IMG/VR virus record: IMGVR_UViG_2529292907_000015
Coordinates: 1-41,886 of that record
Direction: 5' to 3' (one strand)
DNA from: a virus
Taxonomy: Duplodnaviria; Heunggongvirae; Uroviricota; Caudoviricetes
DNA: 41,886 nucleotides
This document shows, piece after piece, positions 4,488 through 5,458 of the stretch. Within the stretch, counting starts at the first letter, position 1; every line of letters starts with the position of its first letter. The notes beneath the pieces are model-generated. The model saw only the letters and a list, made by a program, of their open reading frames with translations. It had not been told where the DNA came from and did no database searches. Both the position numbers and the translations under genes were made by a program.

Positions 4488-4818
4488 ATTGATAACAGAG
4501 GGCGTTGCAGCGGGGTTGTCACTTAAGCGTATGGTCAACCTGACAACCCGGTGTCCTCAACGGGGAAGGAATAACCCCGCCATACTTACCGCCGCGCCAT
4601 TTCGCGGATTGCCACAACCGGAAGCGCACGGTCGAACTAAATTTAACGACACCGTACAGAGAGACCAATTTCGCCGTGCGCTTTCGCGTTATGCCCTGAC
4701 TTTTCAGGGACATATCCTTTCAGTAAACTGTCAGTGCCGGATGTTCACCCGTGTCCGGCGCACGCACTCCACCTGACCCGTGGAGAACTCCTTAATTACC
4801 AACCCTCAGGAGGGTGAA

Positions 4819-5097
4819 ATGGATAAAAAGCAAATTGAGGCCCTGCAATCTATTATTGAAAAACAAGATGAAGCTATCAGGATTCTTTCATATCGCACTG
4901 ATATGATACTAAATATGCTTTCTGCATTAACGGCTGCGCTTGGTGGTACAAAAACAAACGTATACCGCGAAGTTGTTATTCAACAGATAGATAAATTTGA
5001 AAAAACCATACCAGGTATTAATGCTCATCTTGCAGAACAAGAGAAAGACCATGCTCTTATGGCAATTTCTTCAGTAGCTCTCCCGAAAGTTGAGTAG
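4819..5097 (+). CDS. hypothetical coiled-coil protein (AT-rich moron, antisense to the dicB operon)
   Basis: 92-aa ORF from ATG 4819 with a strong AGGAGG SD. AT-rich coding sequence. Its 3' end overlaps the convergent ORF 5057..5458. Confidence 0.4.
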   Translation: MDKKQIEALQSIIEKQDEAIRILSYRTDMILNMLSALTAALGGTKTNVYREVVIQQIDKFEKTIPGINAHLAEQEKDHALMAISSVALPKVE

Positions 5098-5458
5098 TTT
5101 TAATTGTTGTTTTGAAATAATCACTGCTTTCACATTTGAGTGATTTCATGGCAATCCAAATGCGGGCCTCTGTGCCTGCATTTGGTTCCAGTTGCTGTAG
5201 ACGTTTTGCGTCTTCCAAAAGTAAGGCGATAATGTGTTTCAGCTTCTCATCATTTGCTTGATTCTTGTTTTCAGGCGAATTCTGTCCGCCGAATAGGCGC
5301 TTCTCTTCATACAGACCTATAAAGGCACGACGCACGTTACCGGATATAGTATCGATGGTTTCCTTTTCTACAGTACTCAGGTCAAGAGTCGCCAGTTGAG
5401 AGCGAACCACATTCGCTGCCATTTCCTGGAATGGCATTGGTAAATCTTTAAATTCCAT
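5057..5458 (-). CDS. hypothetical protein
   Basis: 133-aa ORF in the same orientation as the dicB operon, with a GAGG SD upstream. No recognisable motif. Confidence 0.4.
   Translation of the reverse strand: MEFKDLPMPFQEMAANVVRSQLATLDLSTVEKETIDTISGNVRRAFIGLYEEKRLFGGQNSPENKNQANDEKLKHIIALLLEDAKRLQQLEPNAGTEARIWIAMKSLKCESSDYFKTTIKTTQLSGELLKKLP

Follow-up and report, generated by a model that had tools for sequence, protein, structure and literature searches.

A probably lysogeny-expressed accessory gene placed antisense in the dicB operon of a Qin/Rac-type prophage

The window analyzed here is the whole of a 41,886-nucleotide (nt) stretch of viral DNA (Caudoviricetes; IMG/VR record IMGVR_UViG_2529292907_000015), on whose minus strand lies the early-left (dicB) operon of a lambdoid prophage of the Qin/Rac type. 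Between ydfC and the gene of the small RNA (sRNA) DicF, this operon contains a cassette of two genes, one coding for a 133-amino-acid (aa) protein in the sense of the operon and the other for a 92-aa protein on the plus strand. The cassette is an accessory insert in a recombination hotspot bordered by ydfC and the N-terminal domain (N-domain) of the 133-aa protein on one side and by the DicF leader on the other. The pair represents a new, uncharacterized example of prophage-hotspot accessory genes paralleling sieB of the Rac prophage, and the leader half of the interval was already known. We consider that the 92-aa gene is probably an accessory gene ("moron") that is expressed in the lysogen and silenced on induction by convergent early transcription; most of the doubt in this reading lies in expression and function.

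Results

An optional cassette between ydfC and DicF

The minus-strand genes of the window were arranged in the order ydfA-like, ydfB-like, ydfC, the 133-aa gene, leader, DicF, dicB, ydfD-like, and exonuclease (Table 1). The dicB/dicF operon of the Escherichia coli K-12 Qin prophage (ydfABC, a long untranslated region, dicF, dicB, and ydfD) matched the window in gene order, in DicF, and in a leader of approximately 310 nt, whereas K-12 Qin had only approximately 26 nt at the position of the 655-bp two-gene cassette. The distance between ydfC and dicF was accordingly 340 nt in K-12 and 994 nt in the window. Homology with K-12 extended from DicF to position 4804 and resumed over the 21 nt following the ydfC stop codon (5460–5480), which defined the extra DNA as 4805–5459. 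At the junction, K-12 reads GCTAA/GGTTAGTAATTAAGG (the slash marks the junction), and the window has 655 bp between both points, with GCTAA/ and /GGTTGGTAATTAAGG as the junction sequences. GC content was 50.2% for the whole window, 54.9% for the DicF leader, 40.4% for the interval 4793–5480, and 36.9% for the plus-strand open reading frame (ORF). Presence or absence among homologous prophages and a composition unlike that of the flanks (40% GC versus 50% for the window), the marks of a moron or accessory locus, were thus both found.

An earlier note on this DNA, made from the letters alone, had described the 133-aa and 92-aa ORFs as converging with a 41-nt overlap, the plus-strand ORF as AT-rich, preceded by a strong AGGAGG Shine-Dalgarno sequence, and antisense to the dicB-operon transcript. 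All of these features were present as described, DicF and ydfC both lying on the minus strand. The note had also taken the interval for inserted cargo, and this held for the two-gene segment missing from K-12 Qin and failed for the GC-rich segment next to it, which is near-identical to that of K-12. Comparison with the Qin interval, which the note had set as its refuting test, gave a Qin prophage without either ORF, and both ORFs proved to be conserved under purifying selection.

The optional nature of the cassette was also evident from a wider sample. Among 120 IMG/VR viral loci fetched by an exact leader pattern, 86 had only 26 nt between the ydfC stop codon and the leader pattern, as in K-12. 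Of 5426 complete E. coli genomes, 125 contained in full the region 4800–5260, comprising the 92-aa gene and the C-terminal half of the 133-aa gene (allele A), and nearly all of these copies were at least 99% identical. Strains with this allele include E. coli 042, CE10, and ML35.

Family of the 92-aa protein

The 92-aa protein matched phrog_18692 over its full length (E 6e-63). Profile and structure searches, which the earlier note had proposed for the two cassette proteins, were run and placed both in PHROG families of unknown function only; there was no match for either protein in Pfam, NCBIfam, or PADLOC, no entry of PDB or BFVD was matched by Foldseek at an E below 0.5, and PDB sequence-profile searches gave nothing. 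Against known defence systems (PADLOC 2023), both proteins and all other cargo of the same position gave noise-level matches only. Neither protein accession was mentioned in any paper found. The AlphaFold2 (AF2) model consisted of three helices with a predicted local distance difference test (pLDDT) score of 70.5, and the 92-aa protein is predicted to be all-helical.

Salmonella prophages carried a 93-aa homologue of the plus gene with 71–73% identity, which was convergent on a stand-alone 71-aa gene whose product aligned with residues ~68–133 of the 133-aa protein. Comparison of the E. coli and Salmonella plus genes by the Nei-Gojobori method gave a nonsynonymous divergence (dN) of 0.18 and a synonymous divergence (dS) of 0.73 (dN/dS ~0.25), and the same comparison of the C-terminal module (C-module) of the 133-aa protein gave dN 0.31 and dS 1.55 (dN/dS ~0.2). 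Both cassette genes are therefore under purifying selection, and both ORFs are real genes on optional or inserted DNA.

A word-indexed search with the 92-aa protein returned only 22 relatives. At the same position in other prophages, allele B encodes a collinear 91-aa protein with 28% identity over 86 aa (pairwise E 9e-6), and a family profile built from alleles A and B was run against 1.84 billion representative proteins. It yielded 18 matches, all of them enterobacterial small proteins except one 1055-aa repeat protein, which was matched in six short stretches and was taken as spurious. Remote members of 90–93 aa were found in Salmonella enterica, S. bongori, and Klebsiella oxytoca, so that the family spans three genera and keeps its length of 90–93 aa and its motifs down to ~25% identity. 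R26, L31, S35, R50, E75-K76, and S85 were invariant, and the motifs ALGGT..NVYRE and SVALP were present in most members. A genome-contig scan with the family alignment and viral-contig scans with two remote members gave no loci. The family was found only in Enterobacteriaceae prophages.

At every readable locus, early lytic or regulator genes near the immunity region lay opposite the family gene, which was either antisense to them or convergent on them. In Rac-like Salmonella loci it lay between a YdaE-family gene and the repressor; in locus L209 it followed Cox and a CII-like regulator of the 186/P2 type; in L210 and L211 it converged on a CI-S24 repressor gene and lay immediately 3' of it; and in K. 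oxytoca it was solitary, beside an integrase. Canonical terminators consisting of a stem plus a U tract were found 25–45 nt after the stop codon of the family gene in L209, L210, L211, and allele B. Because terminators follow the gene in these four relatives, we regard it as an independent transcription unit. Extended -10-like sequences, TGGTATGAT and TGGTATCTT, were read by eye in L210 and L211. A tRNA-like fragment was also observed in L211 (88–156; weak tRNA-Sec score, 23 bits) ~150 nt upstream of the family gene. It is possibly an attachment-site remnant and points to a location of this copy at the end of a prophage.

The 133-aa protein, the overlap, and variation at the position

The 133-aa protein gave separate PHROG matches for its two halves, with the split at approximately residue 62. 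Its relatives had residues 1–58 in common at 81–90% identity, with different C-termini and lengths of 104–166 aa. The split matches together with the shared N-terminus and varied C-termini indicated that an N-domain that stays constant is fused to a C-module that can be exchanged. The AF2 model (pLDDT 62.4) comprised a helical hairpin at residues 1–55 (~80), a disordered linker at 56–72, and a low-confidence helical C-module. Between the C-module of allele A (A-type) and that of allele B (B-type), hhalign detected no similarity (probability 0.04%). The 133-aa protein is probably produced early in the lytic phase, and its C-terminal half has been exchanged together with the neighbouring cargo.

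The 41-nt overlap of the two genes was identical in Salmonella (L083), where the partner is the 71-aa gene, and in L209, where the partner is a 214-aa CII-like helix-turn-helix (HTH) protein. Direct reading indicated that the last 13 residues of the 133-aa protein (TQLSGELLKKLP) and the TAA stop codon are the antisense of the conserved ...HALM..SVALP... codons of the plus gene, and the antisense of these codons yields the partner tail TQLSGELL followed by TAA. The shared overlap and the similar tail of different partners are therefore explained by antisense coding of the conserved C-terminus of the plus gene.

Besides allele A (133 and 92 aa), five other pairs occupied the same position in other prophages: a 106–113-aa protein with the 91-aa homologue (allele B), 124–128 aa with an unrelated 73-aa gene, 135 aa with an unrelated 77-aa gene (allele C; PPompW prophages of enterohaemorrhagic E. 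coli), 201 aa with a 63-aa gene, and 133 aa with an unrelated 61-aa gene. Versions without a convergent gene also existed. None of the cargo proteins matched a known function. As far as can be read at the sequence level, the convergent gene of alleles A, B, and C starts at a common Shine-Dalgarno region beside the leader, and in most alleles it overlapped the operon-sense ORF by 11–41 nt. The A-type C-module was found beside the 92-aa gene and, in L063, L073, and L112, beside the 61-aa gene or without a convergent gene; the B-type C-module likewise had the 91-aa gene, the 73-aa gene, or no convergent gene next to it. The modules recombine freely, which argues against a strictly cognate protein pair, and a strictly cognate two-gene cassette was down-weighted as a candidate since its modules were found in other combinations.

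Other RNA genes were observed in the allele-B prophages: isrK (67.7 bits), a Gifsy-1-type sRNA, and a C4 antisense RNA (81.9 bits), a P1-type immunity RNA, both lay directly downstream of DicF and within 450 nt of it in L058 (3411–3890).

The DicF leader

The leader is flanked by ydfC and dicB (PF05358) as in the Qin type; DicF matched RF00039 over its full length (1–52 of 52) with 76.7 bits and E 2e-15, the gathering score being 48. In a three-way alignment of window 4420–4830 (minus strand) with the ydfC-dicF interval of K-12 Qin and that of a PPompW prophage, the mean column identity was 92%, approximately 190 DicF-proximal nt were identical, and the single divergent patch, ~35 nt long, lay near window 4645–4680. 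Pieces of the leader were also present in cdtI, in Stx2c phages, and in what is annotated as the "dicF-like region" of P1/P7. In K-12, the dicB operon has a long stretch that is untranslated and includes dicF, the 5' end of DicF being formed by RNase E and its 3' end by termination or RNase III (PMC5069750). The GC-rich, hairpin-rich segment is thus the known DicF leader, neither cargo nor new, and the earlier suggestion that it is a precursor of the DicF RNA was right.

Two long inverted repeats had been reported in this segment, and both exist, although the spacer of one is 42 nt and not 44 nt as first given (cores AAGCGCACGG at 4622–4631 and CCGTGCGCTT at 4674–4683). This repeat is also part of the predicted leader structures. 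Chance does not account for the leader repeats, since conservation in K-12 Qin and many prophages extends over the entire segment. For the hairpin at 4513–4549, one clean compensatory variant, GGGTCGTCA / TGACAGCCC, was read directly in locus L073. Folding of the leader was only mildly unusual relative to shuffled sequences (z = -1.85 in the operon sense and -3.46 in the opposite sense), and a covariation analysis of 20 representative variants, which were too similar for a test, gave only scattered G-U/G-C changes.

The palindrome GCCGGA-N12-TCCGGC was found upstream of five of the six members of the 92-aa family examined, and also upstream of sieB in Rac (L213). Compensatory variants were read directly as GCCGGG/CCCGGC in L210, GCCTG/CAGGC in L211, and GCCCGG/CCGGGC in Rac; the element was seen in L209 as well, its loop keeps TTCACC/TTTACC in distant prophages, and it was degenerate in the Klebsiella copy (L087). 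An RNA hairpin, on one strand or the other, and a site for protein binding are both possible readings, and since K-12 keeps the element without the plus gene, neither strand and neither function is favoured.

Two spurious ORFs lie inside the leader, one of 64 aa at 4519–4713 (minus) and one of 95 aa at 4489–4776 (plus). The 64-aa ORF is called hypothetical protein EC042_RS30685 by RefSeq in E. coli 042 (L212, 2726–2920), where no DicF feature is among the features listed for the surrounding stretch. These observations call for a clean-up of annotation, in which the GC-rich segment is the DicF leader and the 64-aa protein call, at least in E. coli 042, is spurious. In Rac-like Salmonella prophages (L083, ~4716–4790, minus), a KilS-like sRNA terminator hairpin, GGCGGTACCAG...CTGGTATCCGCCCTTTTT, was observed in the position of DicF. 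This RNA was below the gathering threshold of the Rfam DicF model, and its GGACTACACACAG matches K-12 KilS.

Discussion

Comparison with known systems

The closest parallel to the 92-aa gene is the superinfection-exclusion gene sieB of the K-12 Rac prophage, the operon of which has the order racR, ydaG, ydaF (DUF1391), sieB on the opposite strand, the KilS sRNA, the FtsZ inhibitor KilR, ydaE, racC, and recE. KilS is an experimentally verified sRNA (PMC8175672). Like the 92-aa gene, sieB is a plus-strand gene nested antisense in the early-left operon and convergent on the 3' end of the preceding small gene, ydaF, which it overlaps by 4 nt; likewise, it lies just upstream, in the operon sense, of genes for an sRNA and for a division inhibitor that targets FtsZ. 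Homology extends to the flanks, with DUF1391 genes in both prophages and 75.5% identity between window 4300–4473 and the kilR-kilS region, and each of the two plus-strand genes has a GCC(C)GG...CCGG(G)C hairpin upstream of it. From this shared architecture and the homologous flanks, we conclude that the plus gene occupies the sieB slot. Its product is not SieB, because it did not match PF14163, which K-12 SieB matched at E 1.5e-31, and because BLASTP of the 92-aa protein against SieB gave no alignment. Rac SieB is 162 aa long, in contrast to the 92 aa of the window protein. Expression of sieB from the prophage is described in one report (PMC10883804).

Moron loci characteristically lie in the antisense orientation (PMC7067206). 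STMMW_20121 of ST64B (Owen et al. 2020, PMC7067206) is likewise a small, function-unassigned gene antisense to lytic genes, and loci of this kind share with the window gene a low GC content, presence or absence among prophages, and organization as an independent unit, the last being indicated for the window family by the terminators in relatives. Expression during lysogeny was demonstrated for STMMW_20121-type loci and is probable for the window gene. In Staphylococcus aureus phage 80alpha, lysogenic and lytic expression exclude each other by virtue of an antisense gene set within an operon (PMC11087260). This tha/ith "noncontiguous operon" resembles the window in having an antisense gene nested in a phage operon, but its polarity is reversed, with the defence gene in the cI operon and the antisense gene as the inhibitor, and its proteins are unrelated to those of the window. 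A type II toxin-antitoxin pair was considered and rejected, since the cassette genes are convergent rather than co-directional and each occurs without the other. Searches for toxin and antitoxin families found none in Pfam or PADLOC, the only match, RelB-like, having 15.9 bits, below the cut-off of 50.

Proposed mechanism

The plus gene would form an AT-rich transcription unit of its own, set in reverse orientation within the lytic operon. In the lysogen, the repressor would hold the early-left promoter off and the plus gene would be expressed, its small helical product acting on the host or on an incoming phage; superinfection exclusion or defence may be the most plausible role, to the benefit of the lysogen. 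On induction, strong convergent transcription from the early-left promoter would cross the plus gene and shut it off, presumably because polymerases collide and the overlapping 3' ends pair. A GC-rich hairpin, 59 nt after the stop codon of the plus gene, is a candidate terminator or 3' stabilizer of the plus transcript. In its variants, 11–12 of 12 positions pair in the plus-sense RNA versus 9–11 in the operon sense, and the informative substitutions (three for the plus strand versus one) are not significant and give only a hint of the strand.

Several results weigh against this reading. No sigma-70 promoter above the shuffle level was found upstream of 4819 (4200–4830), the best match being TTTTCA-17-TAAACT at 4701 with a score of 9.3 versus a shuffle median of 8.3, and the candidate terminator hairpin of the window has only a weak U tract. 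The 92-aa protein showed no transmembrane-length hydrophobic stretch on reading of its sequence and no similarity to SieB or to defence families, and tblastn of three family members against 50,697 GenBank phage records gave no match. In addition, conservation of the leader is not creditable to the plus gene, because the leader is equally conserved in K-12 without that gene.

Alternative explanations

The cassette might instead encode a cognate pair, that is, a lysogeny effector and its lytic antagonist of the Tha/Ith or toxin-antitoxin kind, in which the C-module binds and neutralizes the 92-aa protein and the overlap enforces reciprocal expression. The C-module and the 92-aa gene do overlap by the same 41 nt in both E. 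coli and Salmonella, even though synonymous divergence is saturated, each allele couples a particular C-terminal tail with a particular convergent gene, and the antisense immune gene and inhibitor pairs of phage 80alpha provide a precedent (PMC11087260). However, the shared tail is accounted for by antisense coding, and neither partner is faithful to the other: the A-type C-module also occurs with the unrelated 61-aa gene or with none, approximately 40 genomes having it without the 92-aa gene, and the 92-aa family also occurs with the dissimilar B-type C-module, with the CII-like HTH protein, next to CI, or alone. As no toxin or antitoxin family was matched above noise either, we regard a cognate pair as unlikely. 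A rather improbable alternative is that the plus unit acts mainly as RNA, its ORF being secondary, with a convergent transcript, perhaps from within or beyond the DicF leader, serving as a safety lock against leaky early-left transcription that would reach the toxic DicF and DicB. The convergent overlap upstream of two division inhibitors, the slightly better pairing of the conserved hairpin 5156–5185 in plus-sense RNA, and the established 3'-overlapping antisense control of lambda OOP/cII (named in PMC7067206) are consistent with such a lock. The plus ORF is nevertheless under selection at the protein level, as its dN/dS ratio and the length and motifs retained by distant relatives indicate; moreover, 72% of the sampled loci, K-12 included, do without any convergent unit, and the same slot is filled by unrelated genes.

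It is very unlikely that the ORFs are annotation noise or decaying remnants without current function. Such an origin would fit the lack of family, fold, or structure matches, the low AF2 confidence, the absence from isolated phages, and the truncated or frameshifted copies of the cassette genes that exist, but it is opposed by the purifying selection on both genes, the strong Shine-Dalgarno sequence, the identity of at least 99% among about 126 complete genomes, and the homologues of conserved length in three genera. Expression of the 92-aa gene as a lysogenic accessory gene remains, in our estimation, the probable explanation. It could be extended to a general proposal, unlikely as a whole, that the interval from ydfC or other small early-left genes to the DicF or KilS leader is a dedicated hypervariable slot for lysogeny-expressed anti-phage or host-modifying genes. 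Of its at least six occupants sieB would be one, all would be placed backwards and silenced by the lytic promoter, the 92-aa family would be a new exclusion or defence protein, and the C-modules would antagonize the cargo in the lytic phase. Should lysogens express the plus gene, it and the other occupants of the slot would offer an inexpensive source of candidates for new, small proteins of exclusion or defence in prophages common in E. coli and Salmonella, and the locus would be an enterobacterial example of an antisense-in-operon switch tying such genes to the decision between lysogeny and lysis.

Other features of the prophage

Table 1. Positions of the cassette, the DicF leader, and neighbouring features in the window
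Feature	Position	Strand	Remarks
Exonuclease gene	1307–3790	minus	
ydfD-like gene	3884–4129	minus	DUF1482
dicB	inside ORF 4072–4365	minus	PF05358
DicF small RNA gene	4435–4486	minus	Rfam RF00039
5' untranslated DicF leader of the dicB-operon primary transcript	4487–4804	minus	K-12 Qin alignment
Leader hairpin	4513–4549	minus	GGGTTGTCA (4513–4521) / TGACAACCC (4541–4549), loop 19 nt
Leader long-range inverted repeat	4619–4686	minus	CGGAAGCGCACGG / CCGTGCGCTTTCG, arms 42 nt apart
Palindrome/hairpin GCCGGA-N12-TCCGGC	4736–4759	either	~60–80 nt upstream of plus-gene start
Optional cassette, ~655 bp	4805–5459		AT-rich (40% GC), absent from K-12 Qin; no target-site duplication
Shine-Dalgarno AGGAGG	4808–4813	plus	5 nt before ATG at 4819
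92-aa gene (from ATG)	4819–5097	plus	phrog_18692; antisense to dicB operon
3'-end overlap of 92-aa and 133-aa ORFs	5057–5097		41 nt
133-aa gene	5057–5458	minus	phrog_1363; operon sense
Swappable C-module of 133-aa protein	5057–5257	minus	~aa 68–133
GC-rich 12-bp hairpin	5156–5185	plus	59 nt after plus-gene stop; inside 133-aa ORF
N-domain of 133-aa protein	5294–5458	minus	aa 1–55
ydfC	5481–5699	minus	phrog_1744; conserved flanking gene of dicB operon; RefSeq calls identical ORF YdfC
ydfB-like gene	5729–5899	minus	
ydfA-like gene	5859–6101	minus	DUF1391

The prophage looks complete, with a CI-S24 repressor and replication, lysis, head, and tail genes. In E. coli 042, a gene of a Rha-family regulator was observed between dicB and DicF (L212, 1599–2453); it is absent from the window, which makes this position a second variable spot of the dicB operon. 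A strong match to the sok antitoxin RNA (Rfam RF01794, 108 bits) was found at 11665–11836 on the plus strand of the window, so that a type I toxin-antitoxin locus of the hok/sok kind is probably present in the prophage. A cluster of four genes for tRNAs (Met-CAT, Lys-TTT, Thr-TGT, and Gly-TCC) was located at 16306–16615 on the plus strand, downstream of the region with the replication genes and upstream of the structural genes, terminase included.

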